The notes: generated by a model not told the origin, from the sequence alone. A stretch of DNA of 64,000 bases from Minisyncoccia bacterium (GCA_041742075.1 JBGSJJ010000013.1:1801-65800); one strand, 5' to 3'; counted from the stretch's first letter, positions 6,164 to 62,196 are shown. Translations and numbers: made by a program.

Positions 6164-6332
6164 GTCTTAGTTTCCTTAGGTTGAGCCTCGCGCCCTTCCC
6201 AGAGAAACCTACGTCTCCACTCGTACTAAACATTTTCCCCCGTACGAGCAGGTAATACTTATAACATAAAAAATAGCGCAGTCAAGGGAATTCCCCGACT
6301 GCGCCGTGAGCTCACTTGAGCACGTTGATGAA

Positions 6333-25475: not shown

Positions 25476-25517
25476 TATTCTATTGTACCTGAATACGCGA
25501 CAGACTGATAGGCTACA

Positions 25518-25555
25518 CAAAATGGGCGCCAAACTGCGTTTTGGCGCCCATTTTC
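25518..25555. terminator. long terminator hairpin (aaaatgggcgccaaa / tttggcgcccatttt)
   Basis: 15-bp perfect stem. Confidence 0.7.
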
Positions 25556-25569
25556 TCTCTACCTACAGC

Positions 25570-25713
25570 TTAGTTTTTGGTCGCAACCAAAGAAAAGCTC
25601 AGGGCAATCATGTCGTCAATAACGTTGTCTGCTAGATTTTTGAGAATACTTGAAATAATCAGTTTAGAAGATGTACGAAAAAACCGCGAAGGCAAGGCCT
25701 TCGCGGTAGTTGT
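25570..25713 (-). pseudogene. orphan 3-prime fragment of a yceI-like gene (no start codon)
   Basis: The minus frame reads ...ILKNLADNVIDDMIALSFSLVATKN*. This matches the C-terminus of the intact YceI-like gene at 30319-31041 (DDLADNVIDDMIALSFVLVAEKN*). It has no Met and is bounded upstream by TGA. Confidence 0.6.
25605..25635. repeat. 31-bp direct repeat, left copy (caatcatgtcgtcaataacgttgtctgctag)
   Basis: Identical to 30354-30384. Confidence 0.9.
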
Positions 25714-25734
25714 TCAAAGAACAGATATTCACCG

Positions 25735-27141: not shown

Positions 27142-27217
27142 AACGTGATTCCTTGTGTGAGAGAAAAGAAAAGCGGTGGCGCGAAGCGCCACCGCAGAGG
27201 TGTTCGGTGTGTTCAGC

Positions 27218-28231
27218 TCAGAGCCGACTCACACCACCTGAGGCACGTCGCTTCGCGAGTGTGCCGCCAGTGCGAGCAGCTGTTCCGGCTGCCACCGACT
27301 TGTTGCCGATAGGCACGAGCGCGTTCTTGACGGCGCTCGCGGCTGCACCAGAGAGTCCGATGTCAGCCACGACACGGTCGGCGTCGTACGAGCTCTCGAG
27401 CATGTGGATGATGCCAGCGATGATCTCGCAGACCAGGCTCGAGTCCTCGACCATGACGAGTCGCTCTCCGAGGAGCTGCCGCCAGCGGTCGTGGATGTCC
27501 ATGCGATCAGGATAGCTGCCATCGAGTGCGAACAGGTGGAAGATGTTCCACTGCTCGCTCGCCCGAGACAGAAGCGACTCGACCGTTTCGTCACCCTCGA
27601 CGTCGACGCCGAAGATCTTCTGCACGTCGGCTCCCGTAACGGTCGGCCACGGCATCTCGTCGCCCATCGTGAAGAGGTAGCCCTTCTTGCCGCGCTTCTC
27701 GAACGCATCGCTCGCGGTGTGGTTGGCGGCGAAGTAGTAGGCGAGCCCGTAGGACTCCTTCACCTGTCCGCCGCCGCCCTCGAGGATGATGGCGCGCAGC
27801 TGATCGTCGAAGCGGTTGTCCGATTCGAACTGACCGACCTGGAACGGATAGCGGTCGCACGTCGAGTCGCCGACGGCGCCGACCAGCACCTGTGGGTCCG
27901 AGAGACCAGCCTTGTCGATGATCACGTCCATCAAGCTCGTGAGCTTCTCCTGCAAGACGCGCGGGATGCGCCCCATCGAACCAGTGACATCGAACAGCAT
28001 GGCGATCGGAATCGAGTTCGGGTGTTCGTCGCTGTCGCGGCTCTCGCGCACGCCGTAGTGGTAGCGCGCCGGGTCAGGGTTCTTGAAGCCCTTCGGGTCG
28101 AGCGAGGTATGAATGCCGCTCGCCTTGCCGGACCGAACCTTGACCGTATAGTCGAAGTCGTCGATACCACTTGCGCGGCGCGACGTAGCTGCAGCACTGT
28201 AGATGCTGCTATCCCAAGTACCACCACCCAT
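27218..28231 (-). CDS. von Willebrand factor A (vWA) domain protein
   Basis: MIDAS motif IAMLFDVTGSMG (DxSGS). RBS AGGAGG. Confidence 0.65.
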   Translation of the reverse strand: MGGGTWDSSIYSAAATSRRASGIDDFDYTVKVRSGKASGIHTSLDPKGFKNPDPARYHYGVRESRDSDEHPNSIPIAMLFDVTGSMGRIPRVLQEKLTSLMDVIIDKAGLSDPQVLVGAVGDSTCDRYPFQVGQFESDNRFDDQLRAIILEGGGGQVKESYGLAYYFAANHTASDAFEKRGKKGYLFTMGDEMPWPTVTGADVQKIFGVDVEGDETVESLLSRASEQWNIFHLFALDGSYPDRMDIHDRWRQLLGERLVMVEDSSLVCEIIAGIIHMLESSYDADRVVADIGLSGAAASAVKNALVPIGNKSVAAGTAARTGGTLAKRRASGGVSRL

Positions 28232-28264
28232 GATGTCCTCCTTTGGGTTTGGTGTAGTTTCGAT

Positions 28265-29386
28265 TCACGTGTTCGGCATAATAAGTGGCCGATACGTTCG
28301 TCCCCAGTGGCCTCGCACCGCATCAGTGAACTGACGCAGTACAAGTGCCCCATCGTGTGCACGTCGCTTCGGGTCTGCCACGAGGCAGCCCTTCACCACT
28401 TGCACGATGTCACTCGGAACCTGGCTCGGGAATCGATCGCGAGCCACGTCGCCGCCGGTGAGATAGAGAAACGCCTTGCCGGCCATGTAGAGGTCGGTTT
28501 GGTGCGTCGGTACTTCACGGGCGAATACTTCAGGCGGGTACCAGTCTCGGTAGCGGTCGATGACCGTTGTTAACCGAGCCTTCCTGACGTGTGGTTCGAT
28601 GACCGCATGCGCCCAACCCAAGTGGAGGGGCTCATGGGTCTTCGGATGCACCAGCACGTGCTCCGGCACTAGTGCGCCATTGACGACACCGAGCATCGCT
28701 GCCGCCAGAGTCTGACCGAGTACCCGTCGCCAGACCCAGGCGGCTGCCTCTTGTGGCAAGCCATCCTGGTAGGCAGTACGGATATCCTTGAGCGAAACGA
28801 AACCTGGTCGCTCACGGTAGACATTGGCGCGGTAGCGAATGTTGCCCGCTTCAAGCACCAAAAAAGTGTCAAGAAGTTCAGGCAGAAACGGTGCCAAGAC
28901 CGAAGCCTTGCCGGTCGCCCGTGACAGCACCGCCACCTCATGTTCGAGGTATTGGTTCTGGCTCGGCTCAGCCGCTACCTTCACCACAACAGCCGTGCCA
29001 TCTGCAGCGACCCCGCGATAGAGAAGCGAAAAGTCACCCTCTCTAAACGGTGTCGCGGCGCAGGTATAGCTCATCGTCGAGCCAGTGAAGCTGATAGTCG
29101 GTCCAGTTGTAGAACCAGCCGAAGCAAACGGCTCTTCGTACCGACCGGCGGCCAGTGCCGCTTTTGCACGTTCGTGCAGGTCGATGATACGTGTGAGCAC
29201 ATCGCCAGCCAGCGCTTGTTCAGGACCTGCTCGGTCGGGGTGCGAGGTGCGAGCAAGGTAGACGAACTTCTTCTTGAGTTGCCGTTCCTGCTCGCGCTTG
29301 GTACCCAGAGGGAGCGAACCAAAGACGTCACTGTAGCGAGTGGCGCCCTTAAGCTGTGAGTCGAAAGCCGCCAGTGCGCTCTGCAT
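28265..29386 (-). CDS. J-domain (DnaJ-like HPD motif) fused to a protein-kinase-like domain
   Basis: N-terminal LKKKFVYLARTSHPDRAG is a J-domain helix II-III with HPD. Downstream come VVVKVAAEP (VAIK-like) and a GALVPEHVLVHP catalytic-loop-like segment. RBS AAGGAG. Confidence 0.55.
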   Translation of the reverse strand: MQSALAAFDSQLKGATRYSDVFGSLPLGTKREQERQLKKKFVYLARTSHPDRAGPEQALAGDVLTRIIDLHERAKAALAAGRYEEPFASAGSTTGPTISFTGSTMSYTCAATPFREGDFSLLYRGVAADGTAVVVKVAAEPSQNQYLEHEVAVLSRATGKASVLAPFLPELLDTFLVLEAGNIRYRANVYRERPGFVSLKDIRTAYQDGLPQEAAAWVWRRVLGQTLAAAMLGVVNGALVPEHVLVHPKTHEPLHLGWAHAVIEPHVRKARLTTVIDRYRDWYPPEVFAREVPTHQTDLYMAGKAFLYLTGGDVARDRFPSQVPSDIVQVVKGCLVADPKRRAHDGALVLRQFTDAVRGHWGRTYRPLIMPNT

Positions 29387-29516
29387 TGTTTTGTACTCCT
29401 TCTGTCAAAGAACGTGTTGGAGTGGCTGTACCAACTCCTTCCTTTGTGTACTTCTTACACTAAGATATACCTATGCTTAATTAGTCTCAAGTGTACACTA
29501 AGTTATGACACAGATA

Positions 29517-42817: not shown

Positions 42818-45103
42818 CTAGACGTACCACTCGCTCCCGTACTTGATTTCGAGCGACATGATTTGTCCGTTCTTGAAGACAGCGCCGGTTGTTGCCGTCC
42901 AGTCTGACCCGGTGATCGGACCTCTGAAGTAGTGTCCGTAGGCTCCTTTGGCGGTACCGACACGCCAGACATTGAGAAGCTTCTCGCCGGTATGGCCGTG
43001 ACCCACGATGTACTGCATCTTGTTGCCGTAAACCGTGAACGCTCCGAGACTCCGCGTATTGTTTCCCTTCGGCGCAACATCGCCATGTGAGGACAAACAG
43101 ACGCGGTACTTACCGGTCGTCTTCGCGTAGCGTTCGTCTTGACGACCAAGCGCCGTCAACCACGGATACCGTCCGTTAAACAAGACTTCCAGCGCTTCTG
43201 GCGAGACAGCTTTCCGTTTCTCACGGCTTGTTTTGGCCTCCTCGACCCGCCGTGTCGTTTCTTCTGCCATCAGGTAGCAGAGCTTGCTACCGAAGGCGTA
43301 GTTGCGAGAGTCTTCGCGCCAGAGGCACTTCTGAGCCCATTCCGTGAGCCACGCCGGATGGTTCGCAGCGACAATCACAATCTCAGCGTTCGGGAGGATT
43401 TTGTGGTGTTCGACCAACCTCTTCTCAAACGCATCGACTTCTTCTTCCGCCAAGTCAAACCCCAGACCAGCCAGGGCCGCACTCCGACTCATCTGCTTGA
43501 GCCAGAACGGGCAAGCTGGCGAGTCCGTATCGAGGCCATCGTGACGATACACTTCGTCCGGCTTCAGGGTTGGCATAATGCCGTGCTTGCCCCAGAGCGC
43601 TTTCGCAATCTCTGGGTCAGTTGAGGCGTCATGCCAATCCGGTTCAGCCACCGCCACAATGTCGTTCGGCCGATGTTCACTGCCATCGGCAGTATACAGC
43701 CGTGCGCCACCGTGTTTGGGGTCAATGTCGTACACCTCACCCGTCGCCTCATCAAGCATGATGAGTGGACGAGCGAACCACTTACGCTTACCTTTGAAGC
43801 TAATCACCCAAGCAGCAATCTCAACGTCGTTTTGTGTCACGACGCCTCGCGTGCTCTCATGACCGAGCGCATCGACGTTCAAGACCAGGCGAGTAGCCGT
43901 ACCTGCCGTCATGATGTGACGGGTTCCATCTTCACCCTGCAAAGGCAGATGCTTGAACTCGATATTGGTCCCGGCGATGATGCGCGAAAGACCCGACTTC
44001 ATACGCGCTACCCGACCCGAAAGTTTGGTGTAGAGGGTGGGAAGCAAGAACGAACTCACATCGAGAAGCAGTCGACGTTCTTCATAGACGAAGTCCTCAA
44101 AGAGCATAGAGTCTTCGAGTTCCGGCGCGAAGTTGCTCTCCAAGCGACCATCATGCGTTTTGATTGGACCAAAGCGAAGCGGGAGTCCAACAAACGTGTA
44201 GCCAAGTTCATCAGCAATCTTCTTAAACGTTTGGACTGCTGGGATGAAGGAGGCACCAATCTGCGCCGACATGACGACCAAACCTTTGGCCTGTCGCAGT
44301 TGCTTGCGAGAAACCCGGAATCGCTCGATCTGCTCGAGCGCGGCCGGGTGCATGGGAACAATTCGTCCCGTCGTCGGATGCCTGCGACTCAGACGCACAA
44401 GCTGGCGTTCGAACTCAGGATTCTTTTTCCGATAGGAGTCGTACTTACTCCGTAAACGGTCGATACCCTTGAGCGTCAGCATTTCGCCAAGCTCATGCTT
44501 CATGGCCTCGATGAGGTCATGTCCCGAGGTAAGTTTCTTGTTGTTCCAGACCCGAGCGAATTTGGCAAACTGACGGACTTTCTTCGGCACTTCTTGTTCT
44601 TTAGGCTTCTGACCGCCCCACAAGCCAACTTCCTCACGATGCTTGGCGATGAAGTTGCTGAGCATCGAAATAGTGACTTGTGGAAAATTGCCACGCTTCG
44701 GGTCACGCAGTACTTCGAGTAATCGGGTTTTGAGCCGTGCGAGATCATTTTTCTTATAATACCGCCGTGACTCTTCGTAGGCCTGCTTGATGATACGCAC
44801 GTGCACTTCGTTCCAAATACCGGCCGTACCAGCCACATCGTTGGCAGGAATCGAGAGTGTGAACGTGAGATGCTTCGGGTCGGTAATTGGTTCCGGTATG
44901 CCATCCGGAAAAAGCGTACGCCGACGTTGGTTGACTGCGTTTGCAGATAGCCTAAGTCGGTGACCGAGACGCTTGAGCTCTTCATTAAGATCGCGAGCTA
45001 TCTCAGTGAGACCATGTCCGAAACGAGTCCGCTCACTGATGAACGTATTCATCTCGAATGAGAGGCCGCTCTTTACCTTGGCCGCATTTTTAAGCTTACT
45101 CAT
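42818..45103 (-). CDS. large hypothetical protein (761 aa) on a GC-rich segment
   Basis: Long uninterrupted ORF with sensible amino-acid composition, whereas the antisense ORFs are Arg-rich artefacts. A GHGHTG motif near the C-terminus. No confident family assignment. Confidence 0.5.
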   Translation of the reverse strand: MSKLKNAAKVKSGLSFEMNTFISERTRFGHGLTEIARDLNEELKRLGHRLRLSANAVNQRRRTLFPDGIPEPITDPKHLTFTLSIPANDVAGTAGIWNEVHVRIIKQAYEESRRYYKKNDLARLKTRLLEVLRDPKRGNFPQVTISMLSNFIAKHREEVGLWGGQKPKEQEVPKKVRQFAKFARVWNNKKLTSGHDLIEAMKHELGEMLTLKGIDRLRSKYDSYRKKNPEFERQLVRLSRRHPTTGRIVPMHPAALEQIERFRVSRKQLRQAKGLVVMSAQIGASFIPAVQTFKKIADELGYTFVGLPLRFGPIKTHDGRLESNFAPELEDSMLFEDFVYEERRLLLDVSSFLLPTLYTKLSGRVARMKSGLSRIIAGTNIEFKHLPLQGEDGTRHIMTAGTATRLVLNVDALGHESTRGVVTQNDVEIAAWVISFKGKRKWFARPLIMLDEATGEVYDIDPKHGGARLYTADGSEHRPNDIVAVAEPDWHDASTDPEIAKALWGKHGIMPTLKPDEVYRHDGLDTDSPACPFWLKQMSRSAALAGLGFDLAEEEVDAFEKRLVEHHKILPNAEIVIVAANHPAWLTEWAQKCLWREDSRNYAFGSKLCYLMAEETTRRVEEAKTSREKRKAVSPEALEVLFNGRYPWLTALGRQDERYAKTTGKYRVCLSSHGDVAPKGNNTRSLGAFTVYGNKMQYIVGHGHTGEKLLNVWRVGTAKGAYGHYFRGPITGSDWTATTGAVFKNGQIMSLEIKYGSEWYV

Positions 45104-50717: not shown

Positions 50718-51485
50718 TTAGACAAGGGTAAGAATTTCCGGGCCGTCATCCGTTATCAAAACTGTATGCTCCATATGGGCTGAGAGTGAGCCGTCCTTAG
50801 TAACCGCAGTATAGCCGTCTTCGAGCACTTCAACGTCTATTCCGCCAAGTGTGATCATTGGTTCAATCGCGAGCACCATACCTGCCTCAAGTTTTGGACT
50901 CGGTCCCTTCATAACAAAGTTAGGTACAATCGGCTCTTCATGCAGTGAGTAACCAACACCGTGCCCACAAAAAGTTTCGATGATACCAAACTTTTTTCCG
51001 ACCGCCTTTTCGATAGCTGCACCAATGTCGCGTACATGAGCGCCCGGCTTGGCAGCGTCAATTCCAGCGCTCAGTGCACGCTTGGTGACGTCTATCAGTG
51101 CTTGCACTTCTTTGCTTACTCTACCCACTCCTACGGTTCGAGCTGAATCAAGCACAAAACCTTGGTACCCAATCACTAAGTCAATTGAAACTACATCGCC
51201 ATCTTCAAAAGTTTGCGGATGCTCGTTCGGGATACCGTGTACCACCACGTCGTTAATAGACACACAGGTGGCTGCCGGATAAGGCCGTGGTGCAAAGCCG
51301 GCGTGATAGCCAAGAATCATAGGCTCAACACCATACTCTTCAATCAGTTCCATCGCTCGGTCATCTATATCGAGCGTTGTGTTCCCAGCAACAGCAAGTT
51401 TCTCCAAGTCATTTAAAATAGTAGCGAGAATTTTCCCTCCCGCCCGCATGATTTCAATTTCTTCAGCTGTTTTTATAGCAATCAT
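50718..51485 (-). CDS. map: methionine aminopeptidase type I
   Basis: IKTAEEIEIMRAGGKILA..., metal-binding D/D/H/E/E pattern. Follows adk as in spc-adk-map clusters. Confidence 0.85.
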   Translation of the reverse strand: MIAIKTAEEIEIMRAGGKILATILNDLEKLAVAGNTTLDIDDRAMELIEEYGVEPMILGYHAGFAPRPYPAATCVSINDVVVHGIPNEHPQTFEDGDVVSIDLVIGYQGFVLDSARTVGVGRVSKEVQALIDVTKRALSAGIDAAKPGAHVRDIGAAIEKAVGKKFGIIETFCGHGVGYSLHEEPIVPNFVMKGPSPKLEAGMVLAIEPMITLGGIDVEVLEDGYTAVTKDGSLSAHMEHTVLITDDGPEILTLV

Positions 51486-52081
51486 TGAGGCAAGTTAAGT
51501 GCCGAGACAATCTGAGCATGCACTCCATCAATAGTATCAAGCCCGTCGATGTCATGCACGGTTGTGTTCGGCCGGTTACGATAGTACGCAAGCACCGGGA
51601 GTGTTTCTTCACGATACCACTTCAAACGAGCCTCAATTGAGTCAGGGGTGTCGTCTGTTCTGGCCCGTGAAGCCATTCGAGCACGAACTACTTCTTCTGG
51701 TGTCTCAAGGTTTATGATAGTGACTATATCTCTATTGTAAAAAGTTAGGGCACTTTCAAGCACACGAGCTTCATCAACCACTCGCGGAAAACCATCAATC
51801 AGTAAGTGGCGTTTCTCGCTTAGGTGCTCGCGCATCGCGTCTCCCCAGAGTGCTACAGAAAGGAACAGTGGTTGCAGAATACCGCTATTTAGCGTCTCAG
51901 CCACATGCTCTTCTGTGTAGCCCTCACCCTTTGCGGCGAGCGCCCGGAAGCGACGACCAGTCTGAATGTCGACTACCCGGTTCGTGGGATCGAGTGCCGA
52001 CAAGACTGCATCGAGCTTATCAATCTGAGTTCCTTTACCACTTCCCTGCGGTCCGATGAAAATAATAGTGAATGGTTGCAT
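51482..52081 (-). CDS. adk: adenylate kinase
   Basis: P-loop GPQGSGKGTQ, LIDGFPR NMP-binding motif, LID arginines. Confidence 0.75.
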   Translation of the reverse strand: MQPFTIIFIGPQGSGKGTQIDKLDAVLSALDPTNRVVDIQTGRRFRALAAKGEGYTEEHVAETLNSGILQPLFLSVALWGDAMREHLSEKRHLLIDGFPRVVDEARVLESALTFYNRDIVTIINLETPEEVVRARMASRARTDDTPDSIEARLKWYREETLPVLAYYRNRPNTTVHDIDGLDTIDGVHAQIVSALNLPQ

Positions 52082-52084
52082 GAT

Positions 52085-52666
52085 CTAAGTAGCTAGGTAG
52101 TTAAAAATTTGTTGTTGGACGATATTTGGAGCTTGTTCACCATCTATTTCTATCAAGGTTCCTTTCGTTCTAAAGTATTCTATCGAGTGAGCAGTATAGG
52201 TATGGTATTCCTCTAGTCGCTTTTCCACTGACTTTTCTGAATCAACGATATCTCTTGAGCGCGCCGCGCTTCGCTTCCGTACTTCCTCATCTGATATGGC
52301 CAGATGGAAAACAACGTACTGACGGTCAACCCATTCGTGAATTTCATGAAATAACTCTGCTTCGTTGGGCTTTTTTGCAACAGCTTCAAAGACGACACGC
52401 TCATGTTCAAACTGACTCACGAGGGCGTGCGTCATCCAGTACGAGGCTATCCACTCGGGCATTAAATACCCTCCTTCATACATCTCCTTCATCTTCAAAC
52501 CAAACGTGGTTGGCAACGTAGCGCTTTCGCGCACCTTATTTCCATTAGAATACAACGAGCCTCCGAAGTGCTCTAAGATGGCGTGAGCCTGAGTACCTTT
52601 ACCTGAGGCTATCTTGCCCATGAGCACGATACTTTGATATTTTGTTTTGTATTCCATACTTTGCAT
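52085..52666 (-). CDS. adenylate-kinase-family NMP kinase (second, divergent paralog)
   Basis: P-loop GKIASGKGTQ, C-terminal RLEEY...Y pattern. Directly upstream of adk. Confidence 0.55.
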   Translation of the reverse strand: MQSMEYKTKYQSIVLMGKIASGKGTQAHAILEHFGGSLYSNGNKVRESATLPTTFGLKMKEMYEGGYLMPEWIASYWMTHALVSQFEHERVVFEAVAKKPNEAELFHEIHEWVDRQYVVFHLAISDEEVRKRSAARSRDIVDSEKSVEKRLEEYHTYTAHSIEYFRTKGTLIEIDGEQAPNIVQQQIFNYLAT

Positions 52667-52734
52667 AGAGTACCAATTTTTTCAAGTTCTGCAATCTAAG
52701 GCTCACGCTAAAGATGTGGTATGCTGAAAACGCA

Positions 52735-53355
52735 ATGAAGAAAAAACACATCATTACTATTTCCGGGAAACCCGGCAGTGGCAAGTCATCTACTGCAGAC
52801 AAGGTAGCCGAACTCCTTGGCTACACGCGCTACTCCTCAGGTGACTTTGTCCGGACGATTATACGAAAACGAGGTATTTCGCTCGCCGAGTTCAATAAAA
52901 AAGCGAGTACCGACCATACGATTGATGAAGAAATTGACGAAGAACTTCGAAAACTGCGTGACCAAAAAGAAATCATCATCGACTCACGCCTCGGATTCTA
53001 CTGGATACCCGAATCGTTTAAGGTCTATCTTGACCTCGACATGGACGTCGCCACCGCGCGTATCTACAAAGACACGGTCTCAAACGCTAGCCGAAGTAGC
53101 ACTGAATCTGGTGCCACTATTGGTGAAGTGCAGGCGATGGTCCAGGAACGTCTTAAAAACGAACAGGAGCGCTTCCAGTCGCTCTATGGGGTGAATCCAT
53201 ATAGTCGTCGGCATTTTGACCTCATCATCAACACCTCCCGCCATAGCCCACAAACCGTTGCGCTTACCGTCTACGACACCTATCGCAGATGGCTAGAGTC
53301 AGAAACCTGGAAGCAAGAAATCAGTGAAATTCCACTTGGTTTTTCCCTGCAGTAG
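52735..53355 (+). CDS. cmk: cytidylate kinase
   Basis: ITISGKPGSGKSSTA P-loop and SGDFVRTIIRKRG. Confidence 0.7.
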   Translation: MKKKHIITISGKPGSGKSSTADKVAELLGYTRYSSGDFVRTIIRKRGISLAEFNKKASTDHTIDEEIDEELRKLRDQKEIIIDSRLGFYWIPESFKVYLDLDMDVATARIYKDTVSNASRSSTESGATIGEVQAMVQERLKNEQERFQSLYGVNPYSRRHFDLIINTSRHSPQTVALTVYDTYRRWLESETWKQEISEIPLGFSLQ

Positions 53356-54896: not shown

Positions 54897-55346
54897 CTAG
54901 GCTACGGTCCCGCCAACTGCTTCTATCTTGGCCTTGGCTGATTCAGAAACCTCGCAGGCAATAATCATGAGCTTCTTGGTGAGCGTACCGGTACCAAGAA
55001 TCTTCACTGTTGGTGGCTTCTTGCGGCGAAGTGAGAGTACACCAGCTGACACGAGGGTCTTTGGACTTACGGTTGCACCTGCTTCAAAAGCTGTTTCAAG
55101 CGCGCTCACGTTCACCACTTCTGGGCGAATTCGCTCATTATTTACCGTCTGAGCACGGTTCTTACCGTGTCCACGAAGCTTTGGAAGCTTCTTGATGATG
55201 TCGCGCATTTCTGGTCGTGTACTGTTACCAGCACGGGCTGTCTGACCCTTCATACCTCTACCAGAGGTCTTTCCGCGCTTACCGCCACGCCCGATGCGCT
55301 TTCCGGTCTTGCGAATTTTTGTAGGTTGTAAATCGTGTAATTGCAT
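54897..55346 (-). CDS. rplO: 50S ribosomal protein L15
   Basis: IRKTGKRIGRGGKRGKTSGRGMKGQ. Confidence 0.9.
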   Translation of the reverse strand: MQLHDLQPTKIRKTGKRIGRGGKRGKTSGRGMKGQTARAGNSTRPEMRDIIKKLPKLRGHGKNRAQTVNNERIRPEVVNVSALETAFEAGATVSPKTLVSAGVLSLRRKKPPTVKILGTGTLTKKLMIIACEVSESAKAKIEAVGGTVA

Positions 55347-55356
55347 ATTGTTGTAG

Positions 55357-56001
55357 TTAGGCTTTAAGTTGCTTAAGCGCCTCTACTGCTGCGCGAGCGT
55401 TGTTAAGCTTGTTCTTTGAACGAGAGAAGATTTTGGCTGTTACGTCTTTGACGCCACCGAGCTCGAGCACGGTACGAACTGACGAACCAGCTACGAGTCC
55501 ACGGCCTGGAGCCGGCATAATCATAACTTCACTTGAAGCGTATTTTACCTGGACGTCGTGCGGGATGTGACTATCTTTGTTCATTGGGATAGTAATCATG
55601 TTCTTTTTAGCGTCGCGCATTGCTTTTTCAATCGCAAGCTGAGTATCACCGGCTTTACCGATACCAACGCCTACCTTTCCTTTCTTGTCTCCCAAGACCA
55701 TCGCAACTGAGAAAGAGAATCGTCGTCCGCCAGCCATAACTCGAGTTACTCGACGAATACTGATGATTTTCTGTTCGAACTCTTGACGAGGTCGTTCTTC
55801 GCGACGTCCACCGCGCCGTGGCCGGCGTGGGTTACGCTTATCATTACTCTGACCACGCGGACCGTACGGACGATCACCCGGCGTTGCTGGGGTCGTTGTG
55901 TCGGCAGCGGGTGCATCGGTAGCAGTCACTTCTTCGACTGCTGGTGTTGAGGCAGTGGTTCCTTCCTCAACAGTTGTAGCTTCCTGCTTTGTTTCACTCA
56001 T
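55357..56001 (-). CDS. rpsE: 30S ribosomal protein S5 with Ala/Thr/Glu-rich N-terminal extension
   Basis: VTRVMAGGRRFSFSVAMVLGDKKGKVGVGIGKA. Directly abuts rplO with no L30 gene. Confidence 0.9.
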   Translation of the reverse strand: MSETKQEATTVEEGTTASTPAVEEVTATDAPAADTTTPATPGDRPYGPRGQSNDKRNPRRPRRGGRREERPRQEFEQKIISIRRVTRVMAGGRRFSFSVAMVLGDKKGKVGVGIGKAGDTQLAIEKAMRDAKKNMITIPMNKDSHIPHDVQVKYASSEVMIMPAPGRGLVAGSSVRTVLELGGVKDVTAKIFSRSKNKLNNARAAVEALKQLKA

Positions 56002-56378: not shown

Positions 56379-56518
56379 AGTTTTGCTTGAATCGTATAAA
56401 AGTTTTAGTTTGAGATGCAGTGCGAGGCGCGAGTCAAAATTTTTACGAGGCGTATGTAGGTATACGGTGAGTAAAAATTTTGATGAAGCAACAAAGCAAT
56501 GCGCTCAAATAAACTTTT

Positions 56519-57052
56519 TTATACGGCTTTCTTACCTTGCTTACGAATAATATGTTCCCCCTTATACCGAATCCCCTTCCCCTTGTACGGTTCTGGCTTA
56601 CGTACCTTTCGTACGTTCGCAGCAAACTGTCCAATGGCGTGCTTATCAAAGCCCATCAGGGTAATTGAGCCTTTTTCTACCGTTGCTGAAATACCAGTTG
56701 GTATTTCCATCACCACTGGATGAGAGTAACCAACACTGAGTGTTAGCTTCTGACCTTGGGCTTCGGCTCGGTACCCCACTCCTTCGATTTCAAGTACGCG
56801 AGTAAAACCTTCAGTCACTCCAGTAATCATGTTTCGTACAATAGAAGCGTAGGTGCCCCAAAGTGCCCGTGCTTCTATAGTCTGCTTCTTTGGTTCCAAT
56901 GTCAGGATGCCGTCCTCAATCTTGAGTGCGACAACGGGACGAATGGCTTCAGTAAGAGTTCCTTTTGGTCCAGTTACCGTAAGTACACCATCAGTAAAAC
57001 TGGCGGTGACACCGGCTGGAAGGGTTACTGGTTGTTTTCCTAATCGACTCAT
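56519..57052 (-). CDS. rplF: 50S ribosomal protein L6
   Basis: MSRLGKQPVTLPAGVT... Confidence 0.9.
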   Translation of the reverse strand: MSRLGKQPVTLPAGVTASFTDGVLTVTGPKGTLTEAIRPVVALKIEDGILTLEPKKQTIEARALWGTYASIVRNMITGVTEGFTRVLEIEGVGYRAEAQGQKLTLSVGYSHPVVMEIPTGISATVEKGSITLMGFDKHAIGQFAANVRKVRKPEPYKGKGIRYKGEHIIRKQGKKAV

Positions 57053-57058
57053 ATGTTG

Positions 57059-57454
57059 TTACCAGATGATGAAGAGTTGTTCACCTCCGACTTGCTTTTC
57101 GCGTGCCTCTTCTCCGGTTAAGATACCGGCTGGCGTCGAAAGGATCATGTGACCCTTACCAAATTTTACTGGATAAATATCGGTGACCTTAATGTAGAGA
57201 CGTCGTCCCGGCTTTGAGATACGCTTTACACCACGAATCGTGTGTACCTCCCCTTCAGCGTACTTAAGCGTAACCGCAAGGTCAGCTCCTACTTTTTTGC
57301 TTTGCTTCTCGACTCCAGAAACATAGCCTGCTTCATGCAACTTCTTAGCAATTGCATGCTTCAACTTTGAGTATGGAAGGGTAACTGTGCTTTTGCCAGC
57401 CATGCCTCCATTCTTAAGTTGGATAATGAAATCTCCTACTGTATCGCTTACCAT
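57059..57454 (-). CDS. rpsH: 30S ribosomal protein S8
   Basis: MVSDTVGDFIIQLKNG... Confidence 0.9.
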   Translation of the reverse strand: MVSDTVGDFIIQLKNGGMAGKSTVTLPYSKLKHAIAKKLHEAGYVSGVEKQSKKVGADLAVTLKYAEGEVHTIRGVKRISKPGRRLYIKVTDIYPVKFGKGHMILSTPAGILTGEEAREKQVGGEQLFIIW

Positions 57455-57633
57455 GATGATTTCTTTATGCCTGGTATAGTGCCTTCATTTGCTCCTTCAC
57501 GGAAACAAATACGACAAAGGTCGAAGTCTCGCATGTAGCCTCGCTTACGACCACACTGGTTGCAGCGTCGTACCACTTGAGACTTGAACTTTGGTGTACG
57601 CATTGCGCGTATCAAGATTGACTTTCGTGCCAC
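57448..57633 (-). CDS. rpsZ: 30S ribosomal protein S14 type Z (zinc-ribbon form)
   Basis: 61 aa with CNQCGR...CRIC. Confidence 0.9.
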   Translation of the reverse strand: MARKSILIRAMRTPKFKSQVVRRCNQCGRKRGYMRDFDLCRICFREGANEGTIPGIKKSSW

Positions 57634-58016
57634 GTTTTTTGTCTTATGGGTGGGACAGTATCATGTAGAAACCATGACTTGTCCCCTAATAATCCGACCA
57701 AAACTGGTGGTTTTGGTCTTCGGCGTATACACAAACGAGCGCCTTCCGAGTTAAAACAATAGTTTTATTGCTCGGCGCGTCTCACTCACAACAGATTGTT
57801 TAGAATCAGGAGAGGTTTTGCGTATCTCGCTTCGGGGGCAATAGTACCAGAATACGGAGAAATAACAAGGTCTTACTGCGCTGGAGTAGAGCATCACTCC
57901 ACCTGACGTATCTTCATAGTTTTATATGCTTCATAGTTGAAGTAAGTATAAGAAAAGCCCCGGCACATAATGCGCCGGAGCTGAGACTCACCGAGATGAG
58001 CAAGGAACCTGAAGAA

Positions 58017-59114
58017 CTAGAGGTTCGAGAGCGAGCCGATGATGCGCTCCATCACCAGCGCGCTGGGCATCGGCATCACCTTGTTGATGGAGGCGGGGAT
58101 GCCGGTCACCGTGAGCACGGTTGGGTCGGATTCCACACCGACGAAGCCGGAACGAAACCCATGTTGGCTCCAAGCAATGGCCTGGATGCGCGGATCTCGA
58201 AACGCTTCAGTGAGTCGTTCGCACTCGGGCTTGAGCACGATGAGCGGGTGAGAGGAAAAGATGGTTGGTTCTGGGTACAGGATGTTTATCTGCTCCTTGA
58301 TGACCGTCTGATACTCAGGATGCTTAAGGATGAACTCCGGCAACTGACTCTCGTAGCCGACGATCATCGGCCGAGCGCCCATTCCTTGGTTGAGGAAGTT
58401 CTCGAAGATATCCCCCGAACCCTCTTCCATGAAACCCATGGAGCGAAAGTAGGCGACGAGCTGCGGAAGGACGTTGTCCACCGTCGTTTCGTCGATGACC
58501 TCGCCGTTGTTCAGCATGCCGGCGAGAAGTGCCGCCCACATGTTGCCCGAGTTCGACTTCCTCGGGTCGCTGGAGAAGACCTTGATCGAACCGTAGAGGT
58601 CGAGACCGAGGGATTCCCATTTCTCCTTTGCCGCCGCGAGTTTGATGAGCTCTTGTGGCTTGATGATATAGTGGGTGTTCTCCCGCTCTTCAACAATCCC
58701 TGCCTTCGTGAGCGCGGCGGTAACCGGCGCCCATGTGTAGAAGACGATGGGACTGTTGAAGATGACCTGGTCAGAGATGACGGATTTGCCACTCCTGCGT
58801 GCCAATTCCACCGCCACTTGGTTGCTCGGCCAGATGCAGTGCTGGTCGGTCGTGTTGTCGGTTGTCGACATCGCGATCGAACCGCGTCGCGTGCCGTTGA
58901 GTTGGATTTTGTAGTCCTCGTCGAGGATGGCGAGAACCTCCGGGTTGTTCAGAAACCCCTCTTTCTCGCCGCCATAGTAGAGGTTAAGCGTGAGCGGAGC
59001 GAGTCGCTCGGGGACCTTGCGCTTGAGGCTATCGAAGTCGACCATCGTCAGTATAAGAACGACGACTGCGACCACGATCAGCACTGCGAGGCCCATAAGT
59101 TTCCTCAGGTTCAT
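58017..59114 (-). CDS. membrane-anchored solute-binding-protein-like protein
   Basis: N-terminal TM helix, then a roughly 330-aa periplasmic-binding-protein-like domain. Confidence 0.4.
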   Translation of the reverse strand: MNLRKLMGLAVLIVVAVVVLILTMVDFDSLKRKVPERLAPLTLNLYYGGEKEGFLNNPEVLAILDEDYKIQLNGTRRGSIAMSTTDNTTDQHCIWPSNQVAVELARRSGKSVISDQVIFNSPIVFYTWAPVTAALTKAGIVEERENTHYIIKPQELIKLAAAKEKWESLGLDLYGSIKVFSSDPRKSNSGNMWAALLAGMLNNGEVIDETTVDNVLPQLVAYFRSMGFMEEGSGDIFENFLNQGMGARPMIVGYESQLPEFILKHPEYQTVIKEQINILYPEPTIFSSHPLIVLKPECERLTEAFRDPRIQAIAWSQHGFRSGFVGVESDPTVLTVTGIPASINKVMPMPSALVMERIIGSLSNL

Positions 59115-59725
59115 CGTTCGTATCTCCTTTTGTCATCAATCAGCTCGCCCGCAACATCAGCGGTGCGAGTGAGTTGTTCCAGGTTGGTTTCGAGGCACTC
59201 ATCGCGCATTTGCCGAATGCGAGTCCGGAAGGTATCAATGATGCGCCGTCGAACCGCGTCGAGTTTGATCACGGTGTCTGTACCCCGACTATGCCGCCAA
59301 AGACGGACGTACTCGGTAGAAACCGTGGGTACATCGGCGAAATCGACGATGCGGGTTTTCACAATCCGTATCCCTCGGGGATACTCGTTGCAAAAACGAA
59401 CAACCGCGTAGAGGTCTTCGGCCATTTCGGCGAATACGGGCTGCATCGTCGGGTCGCCGTCCTCGGCGGACAGTTTCTTAAGACCATCTGCGATGGTCTG
59501 TAGGTTTGCGAGCAACGCTTTGAAGCGGTCGCGTCGCATACCAGCATCCCATAGAAATTCAAGATTCGCTGGCGGCTTCACATCGATGATGACCGCTACT
59601 GCCAAGAAGGCAATAACAGCCAGAATCAGTGCGAGCCACCAAACCAGCTGCACCGGCAGAAATAGGACCAAGAAGATCACAACTCCGACCGCTGCAGCGA
59701 TGAGCTGTCGCATGGTTTCTGTCAT
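59111..59725 (-). CDS. 2-TM membrane protein with cytoplasmic helical domain (XpaC-like architecture)
   Basis: Two N-terminal TM helices then about 140 aa predicted helical. The architecture resembles the XpaC family. Homology not verified. Confidence 0.35.
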   Translation of the reverse strand: MTETMRQLIAAAVGVVIFLVLFLPVQLVWWLALILAVIAFLAVAVIIDVKPPANLEFLWDAGMRRDRFKALLANLQTIADGLKKLSAEDGDPTMQPVFAEMAEDLYAVVRFCNEYPRGIRIVKTRIVDFADVPTVSTEYVRLWRHSRGTDTVIKLDAVRRRIIDTFRTRIRQMRDECLETNLEQLTRTADVAGELIDDKRRYER

Positions 59726-59779
59726 AGCTCTAACTCCGCGTGAGGGGAAGGGTGCGCGGCCTCAGGCCGCACTTAGCGT

Positions 59780-61411
59780 TTAGTTGTACCCCTTGACACT
59801 GCGAAGCGTCGCCGGGAGGTCACCCTTGCTGTCGAAGTAGCGTCCAACCGTCAGTGTGGTCAGCTGCTGCAGCTCGGTAGTATCGGCACCGCCGAAGGCG
59901 ATGGCGTTGATTGGCACATCCGACATGAACGAGTACCCCGAAAGGAATCGTTCAAAGTCTTGCGCTTTCATGCCAGCATTCGTTTCGCCATCAGTCATCG
60001 CGTTGATAGCGACGAGGTAGTTGTCGAGCCGGCCTGAGGCTGCGTACGGAGCGATTTCGCGCACCGCTTGAGCCAAGCCTTCATACAACGCTGTTGCAGA
60101 TCCCAGATCGATGGCTTGGGTGTTATTGAGCAGACGAGCGACCTTAGTCGGCTCGTTGCCCTCAACCACCCACACGTCTTGCACAGAGCCCGCGAACGTG
60201 ACGACGATAGTGACGTCGTTCGGTCCGAGTTGGAGCAGGTTGGCAGCGGCAGTTTCGGGATCGAGAAGGTTTTCCATCGCCTTCTTTAGCCCCTCGATGC
60301 CACGTCCAGACATACTGCTCGACGCGTCGAGCACCCATGCTGTCAATGACGGTTTGCGAAGACCGGTCTGGTACAGGTTGAGTGCGGTCTCAATGACCTC
60401 CTGAGTAGGCACCGGCACCGACGCAATGATGCGCTTGGTGTCGATACCCCAGTCGGGGTTGAAGACCGTCGGATCGACCGTGCCAGCGTTAAGGCCGATA
60501 AGGCCCGTACGCCGACCAGTCGCCTTGATGGCGTCTTGTGTCTCAGGCGTAAGCAAGTGAGCCTGAAGCTCGAGGAAGAGTGTTTCCTTTGCTTCGATCC
60601 CATGATCCACGTAGCCGAGCGGGCTATCAGAGACCATGATGGCGTCGCGTGGGTAGACTGCACAGAGCGGTTCGTGGCCACGGTTGATGAGACCGGGCAC
60701 GAACTTCCCTTTCTCGTTCCAGCCGAGATTGGCTTCGATGATCATGCTCTCGTAGTTGAACATAGCATCGAAACGATGCGGGTTCTCGACGACGAGAGTG
60801 CGCAACCAGCCCGAGCTTCCTGCGCTCCGGTCAACGGTCGCAAGGAAGCGCTTCAGATCAGCCTGCACTTGCCGATCCTCGAGTTGCTCAAGAGTCAGTA
60901 CATCTGGACTGCCTGAGAGGGCATAGAGCGCTCCGATGTAGGCCGAAGCGCCGCTATTGGACTGCGTCGCCGAAGTCATCGTGAGCGTGAATGCCCCTTG
61001 GTCCGCGGCCGCGATGATGTCGGCCATGGTGACGTCGGTATCGCTTATCCAGCCGAGTCGGTTGGCGATTGAGCAGTTAAGACCGAGCACAACCGGCGAA
61101 CGCATGATCGACGCCGTGTGCGCGACCGTATTGTTGCGGTCGCCGAGGGCGATCCAAAGCTGGTTCGCCGGCCACACCGCGTCGTACGCACAGCCGGTCT
61201 CGGCCTGCAGGCAGCGGGCGATGTCCACACTACCGAGATAGTCGATGTCAATCGTGATACCTTTCTCTTCAGCGAACGCCGTGATGATTGGCTCGAGGCC
61301 TTCGTTCTCGGATCCCGAGACGATGGTGAATGTTCGTTGCGGTTGTGCCTCATCGCAGGCGGCGAGGGCACAGAGCCCAGCGACTAGGCCACAGAGTACG
61401 TGTTTGGACAT
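59780..61411 (-). CDS. lipoprotein with N-terminal binding-protein-like region and C-terminal vWA domain
   Basis: Lipobox LCALAAC. MIDAS motif WVLDASSSMSG. The start was moved to MSKHVLCG at 61411. Confidence 0.55.
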   Translation of the reverse strand: MSKHVLCGLVAGLCALAACDEAQPQRTFTIVSGSENEGLEPIITAFAEEKGITIDIDYLGSVDIARCLQAETGCAYDAVWPANQLWIALGDRNNTVAHTASIMRSPVVLGLNCSIANRLGWISDTDVTMADIIAAADQGAFTLTMTSATQSNSGASAYIGALYALSGSPDVLTLEQLEDRQVQADLKRFLATVDRSAGSSGWLRTLVVENPHRFDAMFNYESMIIEANLGWNEKGKFVPGLINRGHEPLCAVYPRDAIMVSDSPLGYVDHGIEAKETLFLELQAHLLTPETQDAIKATGRRTGLIGLNAGTVDPTVFNPDWGIDTKRIIASVPVPTQEVIETALNLYQTGLRKPSLTAWVLDASSSMSGRGIEGLKKAMENLLDPETAAANLLQLGPNDVTIVVTFAGSVQDVWVVEGNEPTKVARLLNNTQAIDLGSATALYEGLAQAVREIAPYAASGRLDNYLVAINAMTDGETNAGMKAQDFERFLSGYSFMSDVPINAIAFGGADTTELQQLTTLTVGRYFDSKGDLPATLRSVKGYN

Positions 61412-61544
61412 TGGGTATTTCTCTCTTCTCTTGTTGAATTGTGAAGGACAGTTCGGCTTGTTTTGCAACCAAAACCCCCTAATTTATTAGCACAAAAAAT
61501 GTGAAAAGTCAATAGATTACTAAATATTTTAAATAACTAACAAC

Positions 61545-61581
61545 AAACAGCCGGCACCCTTTTGGGGTGCCGGCTGTTTGT
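61545..61581. terminator. terminator hairpin (aaacagccggcacccc / ggggtgccggctgttt) immediately 3-prime of rplE
   Basis: 16-bp stem. It interrupts the ribosomal operon upstream of the GC-rich cassette. Confidence 0.75.
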
Positions 61582-61605
61582 AACTTGCAACGGTTTAGTT
61601 TTTGA

Positions 61606-62196
61606 CTAGCGTCGCTTCTTCACTACTTTCTTCTTTGGAGCTGCGCCAGCTTCCATAAGTGGAAGGCCGATGTGCCTAAGTAGTGCTTCGGCTTCAGCTT
61701 TACTCTTAGCAGTCGTAACAATCGTAATCGCTAAGCCAAAGACGTCACGAATTTCTTCATCAACTGTCTCTGGAAAAATAGTGTGTTCAGGTAGACCAAT
61801 CGTGATGTTCCCCATCTCGTCAATCGCTGTTGGACGAAGACCTCGAAAGTCTCGTGTCTGTGGCAAGGCTAGGTTGATAAACTTATCGAGGAAACTTTCC
61901 ATCTGCTTGCCACGCAAGGTGACTTGGTAGCCGATGATTTCTCCCTCTCGTAGTTTGAACGAAGCGATTGATTGCTTTGCTCCCCGAGCAGCTGCCTTCT
62001 GACCAGTGATTTGAGCGAGTCGGTCTTGGATGAGGGCAAGCTTCTGCTTGTCTTCAATTTTTCCAACACCGGTTGAGACAACAACTTTCTCGATTCTCGG
62101 AGCTTGCATCACGTTCTTGTAGTTGAACGTTCCCTTAAGTGCATCGTATGATGACTTAATCTGCTCTTTCATGGTTGGTTTGGTAGTAGTTGTCAT
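61606..62196 (-). CDS. rplE: 50S ribosomal protein L5
   Basis: Sits between rplX and the expected rpsZ position. Confidence 0.9.
   Translation of the reverse strand: MTTTTKPTMKEQIKSSYDALKGTFNYKNVMQAPRIEKVVVSTGVGKIEDKQKLALIQDRLAQITGQKAAARGAKQSIASFKLREGEIIGYQVTLRGKQMESFLDKFINLALPQTRDFRGLRPTAIDEMGNITIGLPEHTIFPETVDEEIRDVFGLAITIVTTAKSKAEAEALLRHIGLPLMEAGAAPKKKVVKKRR

Follow-up and report, generated by a model that had tools for sequence, protein, structure and literature searches.

The gene order of the spc cluster is among the most conserved in bacteria, and S10-spc-alpha is the textbook example of a frozen order. The spc operon of E. coli carries a translational operator for S8, reportedly described by Cerretti et al. 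1988 and Merianos et al. 2004. Its position on the transcript that encodes S8 allows feedback control of the spc genes (PMC3616713, PMC4176348) and the core of the S8 site has been described (PMC4176348). Of the regulatory RNAs that act on r-protein genes in E. coli, the majority occur in Gammaproteobacteria only, as reported by Fu et al. 2013 (PMC3616713).

The locus analysed here lies in a 64-kb stretch of DNA (the window) from a Paceibacteria (Parcubacteria/Kaiserbacteria-like, CPR) bacterium. Like the E. coli spc operator, it carries an mRNA helix that appears to mimic the S8 site of 16S rRNA helix 21, with the shared core A595/A596-U644, G597-C643, U641 and A642, and in both cases the helix is on a transcript that encodes S8. 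The E. coli operator, however, overlaps the rplE start and controls L5 and the genes downstream, whereas the helix described here (P2) is a compact stem-loop about 18 nt before rpsZ, and rplE is in a separate, terminated unit beyond its reach. Further, unlike E. coli, the host belongs to a CPR lineage in which the native genes checked lack a Shine-Dalgarno (SD) motif. With integration hotspots flanked by core genes the locus shares conserved flanks, differing accessory genes in close relatives and deviant composition. It departs from the typical ones in that the flanks are spc r-protein genes and in that no integrase or transposase was found among the three inserted genes, no tRNA nearby and no flanking repeats above chance, so that by these marks it does not classify as a mobile island.

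The rplE/rpsZ junction in the window and in relatives

Between rplE and rpsZ the window holds three minus-strand genes, referred to here as the cassette, then a 383-nt spacer, followed by rpsZ-rpsH-rplF (Table 1). Cassette genes 2 and 3 overlap by 4 nt, and rpsH and rpsZ by 7 nt. The sequence-only reading had recognised that genes of foreign composition interrupt rplE and rpsZ, at coordinates that we confirmed, and had noticed both the terminator past rplE and the non-coding gap before rpsZ; the stem is 17 bp instead of 16 bp, and the gap 383 nt instead of 360 bp. It had also proposed a promoter for the distal spc genes within 57634–57995, where a predicted, conserved promoter element is indeed found. 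Transcription of the leader would start near 57835.

Table 1. Features of the rplE/rpsZ junction and its flanks (positions in the window)
Feature	Position	Strand	Description
rplE (L5)	61606-62196	-	ORF; final gene of the upstream ribosomal unit; Pfam Ribosomal_L5/L5_C on record for the identical protein
rplE intrinsic terminator	61543-61581	-	perfect 17-bp stem (61543-61559 / 61565-61581), 5-nt loop, T-rich tail
Candidate cassette promoter	61484-61512	-	TTGACT, 17 nt, TAATAA with TG before it; lies within a spacer region of 37% GC
Cassette gene 1	59780-61411	-	543 aa; SBP_bac_11 + vWA lipoprotein
Cassette gene 2	59111-59725	-	204 aa; N-terminal 2-TM hairpin, XpaC/PF10112-like
Cassette gene 3	58017-59114	-	365 aa; N-terminal TM anchor; type II periplasmic-binding-protein fold (predicted)
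Cassette intrinsic terminator	57956-57982	-	12 pairs, 8 of them G-C, then TTTTCTTAT
Non-coding stretch	57634-58016		383 nt
rpsZ promoter (predicted)	57841-57868	-	-35 TTGTTA (57868-57863), 16-nt spacer, extended -10 TcTGG-TACTAT
rpsZ promoter -10 hexamer	57846-57841	-	
rpsZ-rpsH-rplF structured 5' leader	57634-57834	-	~200 nt
Leader hairpin P1	57696-57718	-	GACCAAAAC / GUUUUGGUC
Leader hairpin P2	57652-57686	-	putative mimic of the S8 site, 16S rRNA helix 21; ends 18 nt before the GTG start
rpsZ	57448-57633	-	zinc-type S14, 61 aa, GTG start; Pfam Ribosomal_S14, E 3.7e-21
rpsH (S8)	57059-57454	-	Pfam Ribosomal_S8, E 9e-35
rplF	56519-57052	-	

In most of 35 non-CPR loci the rplE-rpsZ gap is about 20 nt, and it never rises above about 200 nt. 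Of 34 related Patescibacteria loci, 32 have a gap of 108 nt or more, and the distant L032 and L039 one of about 20 nt; some other related loci have no rpsZ within 8 kb. All 22 closer relatives showing both genes have a gap of 203–3544 nt. In 22 of 25 clade loci a terminator-like hairpin with a T-run follows the stop codon of rplE within 130 nt, and the rpsZ promoter, TTGnnn-N16/17-TCTGGTAttGT, lies upstream of the leader at the same position in 21 of 22. The junction is thus not normally contiguous in this clade, nor is the promoter new, as the sequence-only reading had supposed. Between terminator and promoter, relatives carry 0–3.5 kb or more of unrelated genes, which differ from locus to locus and are mostly orphan or secreted-protein genes. 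Four loci (L004, L007, L026, L029) have no insertion, yet keep terminator, promoter and leader, and L009 and L087, whose r-protein genes are 83% identical, carry different inserts, with homology beginning at the promoter. Based on these comparisons, the variable, unrelated genes between a conserved terminator and a conserved promoter indicate that the rplE/rpsZ junction is a clade-wide insertion hotspot, and the conservation of terminator, promoter and leader, together with the enlarged gaps in relatives, indicates that the cassette landed in a pre-existing inter-operon spacer.

The rpsZ leader and its likeness to the S8 site

The leader has a minimum free energy of -65.6 kcal/mol (z -4.55 against shuffles), and its 3' half is conserved among relatives. 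The leader RNA is kept whichever genes are inserted. In alignments, the position of P1 is occupied by sequence-different hairpins in several relatives (e.g. L009, L013, L014, L018 and L028). P2 was compared with the verified E. coli sequence of 16S helix 21: its 5' strand AAGUC (57680–57676) corresponds to 16S positions 595–599 and its 3' strand GAUACU (57662–57657) positions 639–644. The stem is 96–98% paired, against 34–48% in slid controls, and 8–9 of its 11 pairs show compensatory changes (0 of 500 shuffles). The equivalents of G597, U598, G639, A640, A642 and C643 are invariant in all 16 seed sequences and that of U641 is kept in 14, while the G597-C643 pair is present in 25 of 25, so that P2 has the internal loop of the S8 site (G597-C643, U598, A640, U641, A642). 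At the 596-644 equivalent, the distinct sequences have C-G (14), A-U (6), G-C (1) or U-G (1), or are unpaired (2) or gapped (1); the alternation of A-U and C-G at this pair is also what distinguishes the S8 site of E. coli from that of Thermus (PMC4176348). The base before the 596 equivalent is mostly A, which conforms to the 595-(596-644) base triple, A-(A-U) in E. coli and G-(C-G) in Thermus (PMC4176348).

A covariance model of P2 (R1) gave one match per locus, on the sense strand and always between rplE and rpsZ; in most loci the match lies 15–25 nt before the rpsZ start, on the mRNA that also encodes S8. There was no match in the 35 non-CPR loci or in the more distant Patescibacteria L031–L048, and the lack of matches in the latter bounds the age of the split only roughly. 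Among 80 metagenome pattern matches, only three had rpsZ 22–25 nt downstream, all three with complete stems. A few loci (L011, L016, L024) have over 100 nt between hairpin and start codon, so that simple steric occlusion cannot apply throughout. The leader matched no Rfam family at E values up to 10; weak Rfam sRNA-terminator matches fell solely on the cassette terminator hairpin. P2 does not fall in the E. coli-type spc operator family, being located upstream of rpsZ rather than at rplE and having no Rfam match. A term search of the paper presenting 20 r-leader candidates (PMC7247131) found no mention of uS8, rpsH, rpsN, uS14, Parcubacteria or helix 21, and an rpsZ leader with an S8-site mimic is previously undescribed. 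Cumulatively, the likeness in sequence and pairing suggests that the leader hairpin is probably an S8 autoregulatory operator moved to rpsZ, and we propose S8, the rpsH product, as its ligand.

The cassette, its proteins and its source

The cassette region (58017–61468) has a GC content of 57.4%, elevated as the sequence-only reading had noted, if short of the 60% that it gave, against a background of 47.4%, and the contrast is far beyond chance. Genes 1, 2 and 3 have GC contents of 58.8, 54.5 and 57.2% and GC3 values of 0.70, 0.60 and 0.78, respectively, compared with GC3 of 0.28–0.53 in 17 flanking native genes. When the 64 kb were scanned, 14 of 606 equal-size windows had cassette-level GC; besides the cassette, these were confined to the region at 25.3–29.4 kb. 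SD motifs, absent from the 17 native genes checked, occur in the cassette genes (GGAG upstream of gene 2, AAGGAG upstream of gene 3), and together with the high GC3 these retained motifs point to little amelioration of the cassette. Two outcomes that the earlier reading had named as telling against it were not observed: instead of all relatives carrying the same insertion at native composition, the only other r-protein-linked contig with the cassette is L087, at the same place and also GC-richer than its flanks, and the GC difference was anything but non-significant, in the windowed GC as in the GC3 comparison.

The domain assignments of that reading (a vWA/MIDAS lipoprotein, an XpaC-like 2-TM protein and an anchored SBP-like protein) hold up, the XpaC likeness as a putative one, with the addition of an N-terminal SBP_bac_11 domain in gene 1. 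This protein matches SBP_bac_11 (PF13531) over residues 55–319 (49 bits, cutoff 25) and vWA (PF00092) over residues 379–541 (30.8 bits, cutoff 23.8); its MIDAS motif is intact (DASSS at residue 362, TDG at 473), and it has the lipobox LAAC with Cys19. It has 3223 homologues, the named ones in Thiothrix, Rhodobacterales and Neomegalonema. Gene 2 has a hydrophobic segment at residues 3–55 by hydropathy and scores 22.1 bits against XpaC / Halogen_Hydrol (PF10112), below the 29.8 cutoff and over the TM region only; it is 22–31% identical to its syntenic orthologues, of which those in five proteobacterial operons have PF10112 matches on record. Gene 3 had no sequence match in Pfam, NCBIfam or PDB. 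Its AF2 model (pLDDT 87) matched FbpA/FutA, sulfate-binding and ModA proteins in Foldseek at E 1e-10 to 1e-8, and on this model gene 3 is a membrane-anchored protein with an oxyanion/iron SBP fold. The fold is like that of the SBPs of oxyanion/iron-cluster ABC importers (FbpA/FutA, Sbp, ModA; target-normalised TM-score 0.55–0.69), which also belong to the same Pfam family as the N-domain of gene 1, but sequence identity to them is only 9–15%, and in the cassette one SBP copy is fused to vWA. Neither in the window cassette nor in seven of eight other contexts are the genes linked to a permease or ATPase, the linkage that defines an ABC solute-binding protein; pstSCAB adjoins the Thiothrix copy, an adjacency not conserved in the other contexts. 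None of the three proteins matched a PADLOC defence-system model. Our best guess, held with low confidence, is that they may form an envelope complex, with no ABC importer, whose ligand on the outer side of the membrane would be an anion or a metal.

In Alpha- and Gammaproteobacteria these three genes form a conserved operon (SBP-vWA / PF10112 / SBP-fold) of unchanged order and similar gene sizes (~540, 200 and 360 aa), with reading frames that overlap or adjoin in both settings and with genes 1 and 3 at 50–62% identity to the cassette. Seven contigs whose gene neighbourhoods are of an ordinary, non-CPR type carry the operon, Thiothrix nivea and Tropicimonas among them; its neighbour genes vary from contig to contig, and in one of the seven no 2-TM gene is called. 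Its GC equals host GC in the three contigs checked, whereas the cassette deviates from its reduced CPR host, being above it in GC, and sits on a long branch. The CPR copies are monophyletic with a neighbour-joining bootstrap of 100% (200 replicates, 876 columns). In the cassettes of L087 and L088, TTGACA-N17-TATAAT and TTGACT-N17-TAAAAT occur where the candidate cassette promoter sits; the latter was read directly in the sequence and not flagged by a consensus scan, and its assignment is accordingly a putative one. We consider it most likely, from these comparisons, that the cassette, a module of proteobacterial type, entered Paceibacteria by horizontal transfer, the CPR copies forming one clade.

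Competing explanations and meaning of the locus

We regard as likely, taken as a whole, an explanation that combines an ancestral rplE/rpsZ split, an S8-mimic leader, an insertion site and a foreign, self-contained cassette. The spc operon of this Paceibacteria clade would have been cut ancestrally between rplE and rpsZ, with the upstream unit stopping at the strong intrinsic terminator directly past rplE and the downstream rpsZ-rpsH-rplF unit relying on its own conserved extended -10 promoter and structured leader. Surplus S8, encoded by the second gene, would bind P2 at about -19 to -53 and hinder 30S loading at the A-rich, SD-less start region, resulting in feedback repression of rpsZ-rpsH and the coupled downstream genes. 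The essentially zero spacer between terminator and promoter in 'empty' genomes would serve as a permissive insertion site, and the cassette would be a foreign unit in which a promoter and a terminator of its own enclose the three genes.

A recent insertion that broke a contiguous rplE-rpsZ operon, with a new promoter in the 360-bp gap rescuing the distal spc genes, would suit the cassette's foreign composition and the ~20-nt junction of most non-CPR bacteria and of L032 and L039. It is very improbable and already contradicted, since terminator, promoter and leader are kept both in the four insertion-free loci and alongside different insertions, and 20 other loci share the promoter element of the window. 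The sharp GC step and the proteobacterial affiliation of the closest named homologues could also stem from an assembly or binning chimera joining a proteobacterial fragment to a CPR contig. We give this hardly any credence: junctions identical to those of the window occur in separate Logan assemblies (both in SRR28170465, the rplE-side one in SRR28170474), the exact proteins are on record from NCBI on an 80-kb contig, the cassette occupies this site also in L087, a second and divergent Paceibacteria contig, and no proteobacterial copy is more than 50–62% identical to it.

The cassette could instead be an old resident, inserted once in the common ancestor of the window genome and L087, inherited vertically and mostly lost or replaced since, as opposed to a recent or repeated acquisition. 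The monophyly of the CPR copies and the shared locus in two sublineages agree with this, as does a cassette divergence (~55% identity between window and L087) proportionate to that of the r-proteins (65–70%), which is also compatible with one old insertion followed by many losses. Against it stand the slight amelioration seen in GC3 and SD motifs and the nearest relatives of both carriers, which lack the cassette (L004, L005 and L007; L009), so that vertical descent needs many independent losses; we think it unlikely. A small chance likewise attaches to the leader hairpin having another role, for instance in stabilising or processing the mRNA or in binding a different protein, with no more than a resemblance to helix 21. 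S8 binding is deduced from sequence likeness, some loci differ in how far the hairpin lies from the start codon, and further conserved upstream hairpins have no assigned ligand. The invariant nucleotides, however, are exactly the S8-contact core (G597-C643, U598, A640, A642), changes at the variable ones are isosteric, as they are in rRNA, and the transcript also encodes S8, for which E. coli provides the precedent.

Returning to the ancestral split with an S8-mimic leader, a broader version of it, to which we assign even chances, is that the spc operon has been re-partitioned, that the leader represents a new S8-responsive class, and that the zero-length boundary is a recurrent hotspot of cassette exchange, by way of which accessory envelope genes, this proteobacterial SBP-vWA module among them, would pass from one CPR lineage to another. 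Homologous recombination in the ultra-conserved flanks may drive such exchange. The cluster is a textbook case of frozen gene order, yet throughout a CPR clade one of its junctions is systematically open, with a turnover of accessory genes. The flow of genes by horizontal transfer into these reduced and for the most part uncultivated genomes can thereby be studied at a defined locus. For annotators, it provides promoter, terminator and leader models for such genomes, and the cassette points to a widespread proteobacterial three-gene envelope module (SBP+vWA, XpaC-like, SBP-fold), uncharacterised so far. As a candidate r-protein autoregulatory RNA from a lineage of the candidate phyla radiation, the conserved leader lends itself well to testing and, if true, would place the S8 principle of E. 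coli at another gene, in a translation system without Shine-Dalgarno motifs.

Composition and origin of the cassette between rplE and rpsZ

The gene map that the sequence-only reading had drawn around rplE, the cassette and rpsZ was reproduced by ORF listing, Pfam searches and a terminator scan, and the foreign cassette at this position is real. From the side of the cassette that bears the second terminator to rpsZ, 383 nt are non-coding.

Features of the rplE-rpsZ region of the window
Feature	Position	Strand	Basis
rplE	61606-62196	-	ORF listing, Pfam
Terminator after rplE, perfect 17-bp stem	61543-61581	-	terminator scan
Cassette gene 1	59780-61411	-	ORF listing, Pfam
Cassette gene 2	59111-59725	-	ORF listing
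Cassette gene 3	58017-59114	-	ORF listing
Second terminator, the cassette's own	57982..57956	-	terminator scan
rpsZ promoter, TTGTTA-N16-TCTGGTACTAT	57868-57841	-	motif common to 21/22 loci
rpsZ, followed by rpsH and rplF	57448-57633	-	ORF listing, Pfam

The island has a GC content of 57.4% vs. 47.4% for the background, and GC3 of genes 1, 2 and 3 is 0.70, 0.60 and 0.78, compared with a range of 0.28-0.53 among 17 native genes nearby. Elsewhere in the window, a single region, at 25.3-29.4 kb, is equally rich in GC. An assembly chimera was ruled out, as Logan assemblies of other runs, made separately, show the proteins in an identical order and the exact proteins also occur in an NCBI record, on a contig of 80 kb. 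A repeat search of 57600-61620 yielded no direct or inverted repeats at the flanks in excess of chance, and the likenesses between TTGTTA..TTATTT at both borders, and between the cassette and rpsZ promoters, are too weak to interpret.

In the three non-CPR-type contigs checked, the GC content of the cassette matches that of its surroundings (0.607/0.597, 0.576/0.567 and 0.379/0.382), while in CPR contigs it lies above them (0.574/0.474 in the window and 0.543/0.499 in L087, a Paceibacteria locus). Further, all 17 native genes examined lack a Shine-Dalgarno (SD) motif, while GGAG precedes cassette gene 2 and AAGGAG gene 3, and a consensus-like promoter candidate, TTGACT-N17-TAATAA (61512-61484, minus strand), was read by eye. 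The GC contrast, the retained SD motifs and the conservation of the operon elsewhere argue, with good support, that the cassette is a horizontally acquired, self-contained operon with a predicted promoter and terminator of its own.

Gene 1 encodes a lipoprotein with a LAAC lipobox and an intact MIDAS motif (DASSS, TDG), as had been proposed from the sequence, together with an N-terminal SBP_bac_11 domain that the original description lacked. The protein has over 3000 homologues; those from named organisms are 'substrate-binding and VWA domain-containing proteins' of Thiothrix, Neomegalonema, Tropicimonas, Ruegeria and other Pseudomonadota (50-55% identity), and its top match (62% identity) lies on L084, a contig of 60% GC; homologues of gene 3 show a similar pattern. 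Six contigs whose gene neighbourhoods are ordinary and not of CPR type show all three genes side by side and identically ordered, at similar sizes (about 540, 200 and 360 aa); a seventh such contig, L086, has no called 2-TM gene. The middle gene of the non-CPR-type operons matches PF10112 (XpaC-like). Neighbours of the cassette in these contigs are unrelated between genomes, and no conserved ABC permease or ATPase adjoins it in the seven examined. A link to phosphate, at which pstSCAB and PhoX next to the copy in Thiothrix had hinted, was rejected, as this neighbourhood was not seen in other contexts; the short contig L088 offers no neighbours to judge by. NCBIfam, PADLOC and PDB sequence searches returned nothing useful for the cassette proteins, and gene 3 had no family match in Pfam, NCBIfam or PDB sequence searches. 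Its predicted model (pLDDT 87) has a membrane-anchored type II periplasmic-binding-protein fold, and the nearest structures are binders of ferric ion, sulfate and molybdate.

Other parts of the window also stand out. The second GC-rich island (25300-29400, minus strand; 58-62% GC, GC3 about 0.63) contains an adenylosuccinate-synthetase-like gene (25735-27192) along with two ORFs that lack Pfam matches (27218-28231 and 28265-29386), and is probably a further horizontally acquired block. A 761-aa ORF without a Pfam match (42818-45103, minus strand) has raised GC (54%, GC3 0.62), and a stretch of 52-54% GC (5333-6941, minus strand) encodes two RTX calcium-binding nonapeptide repeat proteins (HemolysinCabind, E 1e-42 and 4e-13). 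The tRNA-Ile at 12059-12133 has the anticodon TAT (UAU) and reads AUA directly; the usual reader of this codon is a lysidine-modified CAU tRNA.

The rplE-rpsZ junction among relatives of the host

Taking a single genome for each species, we searched with the L5 protein and compared 45 Patescibacteria loci with 35 loci of other phyla. In the latter, the gap from rplE to rpsZ/rpsN is about 20 nt in most loci and never exceeds about 200 nt, whereas in Patescibacteria loci showing both genes it ranges from 20 to 3544 nt and reaches 700 nt or more in 17 of 34; in several more, no rpsZ lies within 2-8 kb of rplE. In the closer clade, where L5 identity is 67% or higher, even 'empty' sites span 203-374 nt. 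The cassette occurs in none of the 45 Patescibacteria loci, and the inserted ORFs vary by genome, including a DsbA-like protein, an NMT1-like SBP and an ORF6N protein. The majority are orphans, several carry signal peptides or TM segments, and the GC content of several inserts is above or below that of their flanks. The r-protein genes of one relative, L009, are 83% identical in DNA to those of L087, yet the two carry unrelated genes at the rplE-rpsZ site, with homology starting exactly at the rpsZ promoter.

At empty sites, the rplE stop is followed by a strong intrinsic terminator, then at once by an extended -10 promoter, TTGCtT-N16/17-TCTGGTATTGT, and a leader of about 130-200 nt before rpsZ. 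A terminator-like hairpin with a T-run lies 3' of rplE in 22 of 25 clade loci, and the promoter motif lies upstream of the leader in 21 of 22, window included. The sequence-only reading had foreign genes breaking a contiguous operon, with the distal spc genes driven from a new promoter in a 360-bp gap. The promoter was indeed located in that gap, but it is not new, and both boundary elements are conserved in the clade, also at empty sites; the distal spc genes therefore appear to use the clade's old promoter. The cassette thus sits between a predicted old terminator and a predicted old promoter, disrupting nothing, and the broken operon is replaced by a clade-wide insertion hotspot at an ancestral terminator/promoter boundary.

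In L087, the three cassette genes and a flotillin-like gene are found just upstream of that locus's own rpsZ promoter and leader. The copies of the window, L087 and L088 form a neighbour-joining clade with 100% support, and this single clade of CPR copies favours one entry of the cassette into Paceibacteria; L084 falls beside it with weak support. From there, the cassette may have spread between lineages through this locus, as is favoured by its weak amelioration and by its absence from the nearest relatives of both carriers, or it may have been inherited vertically with many losses. The latter is allowed because cassette and r-proteins have diverged in proportion: between L087 and the window, the r-proteins are 65-70% identical, genes 1 and 3 are 54-55% identical and gene 2 is 31% identical.

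Both L087 (4549-6480) and the proteobacterial contig L091 (9448-11103) have a Band_7/flotillin-like gene immediately after the cassette, on the other strand, which suggests an occasional functional or transfer linkage. Within the distal spc unit of the window, a 140-nt non-coding gap (56379-56518) separates rplF from rplR, and rplO directly follows rpsE without rpmD (54897-56001), which fits the absence of L30 that is reported for CPR bacteria. Downstream of secY are two tandem adenylate-kinase-family genes (52085-52666 and 51482-52081) and, on the strand opposite to them, a cytidylate-kinase-like gene (52714-53355). On L002, a contig of the same organism, two small minus-strand ORFs (1-1306) precede rpsS instead of rplB, so the S10 operon may also be interrupted, past the window's end.

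A leader hairpin resembling the S8 site

The 50 nt upstream of rpsZ are conserved across lineages and form a hairpin, P2, with the strands AAGUC (or ACGUC) on the 5' side and GAUACU (or GAUACG) on the 3' side; E. coli 16S helix 21 reads ...UUAAGUCAGAUG...CAUCUGAUACUGG... (verified, 5426 genomes). The S8 site is a helix with a conserved internal loop that holds a (G597-C643)-U641 triple and the invariant A642, and E. coli has A595-(A596-U644) where Thermus has G595-(C596-G644) (PMC4176348). In the leaders, the equivalents of G597, U598, G639, A640, A642 and C643 are invariant and the 596-644 equivalent switches between A-U and C-G. The S8-type structure is paired in 96% of cells, with compensatory changes in 8 of 11 pairs; none of 500 shuffles reached the observed covariation score or percentage paired, and slid controls were 34-45% paired. 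Once L087 and three contigs from metagenomes were included, the set of 25 distinct sequences was 98% paired, with covariation in 9 of 11 pairs.

A covariance model of P2, R1, built from a seed of 16 sequences, gave one match per locus in 21 sources, on the sense strand and always just upstream of rpsZ, five of them in loci outside the seed; neither the 35 loci from outside the CPR nor the rest of the 1.1 Mb searched gave a match. Among the 80 metagenome matches listed for the loop pattern AMGTCAYNNNNTTCNNNNTGATACKG, 77 were chance occurrences without rpsZ and only three (L103, L145 and L160) precede rpsZ, all with complete stems. Moreover, the whole leader of the window folds with z = -4.55, and hairpins further upstream, P1 among them, are seen again in relatives. 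No Rfam leader family was matched at the gathering threshold across the window or at E up to 10 in 57400-58100, the only matches being tmRNA and tRNA elsewhere in the window and chance ones at the cassette terminator. A term search of a paper reporting 20 r-leader candidates found no mention of uS8 (rpsH), uS14 (rpsN), Parcubacteria or helix 21, and none of the top-ranked literature matches joined 'spc operon' with CPR.

Five more distant Patescibacteria loci without an R1 score (L036, L045, L041, L046 and L047) have GUC...GAUAC-like strings in conserved-looking hairpins about 60-130 nt upstream of rpsZ, and these may be divergent leader variants. Two 5' leader motifs are also shared, GGCAAGACGA-hairpin-CGUUGAAAGC by L011, L023, L026, L027 and L029, and GCGACGUUGGGUGGGGA... 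by L013, L014, L018 and L021.

In E. coli, a helix 21 mimic overlaps the start of rplE, and S8 that binds to it represses this gene together with the coupled distal ones (PMC3616713). The window likewise has a helix 21 mimic, placed upstream of rpsZ instead. By analogy, we infer feedback at rpsZ that would follow E. coli-like logic at a different gene: S8, made from the overlapping second cistron, would occupy the hairpin, 18 nt ahead of the rpsZ GTG, and hinder the 30S subunit from loading on an initiation region that is A-rich and has no SD motif. The distance from the hairpin to the rpsZ start exceeds 100 nt in a few loci, so details of control may differ there. By its position, rplE lies outside this putative S8-leader control. 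Two things are new: a single spc junction is opened recurrently, and rpsZ is preceded by an unannotated leader that resembles the S8 site. The junction site is more informative than the cassette itself.
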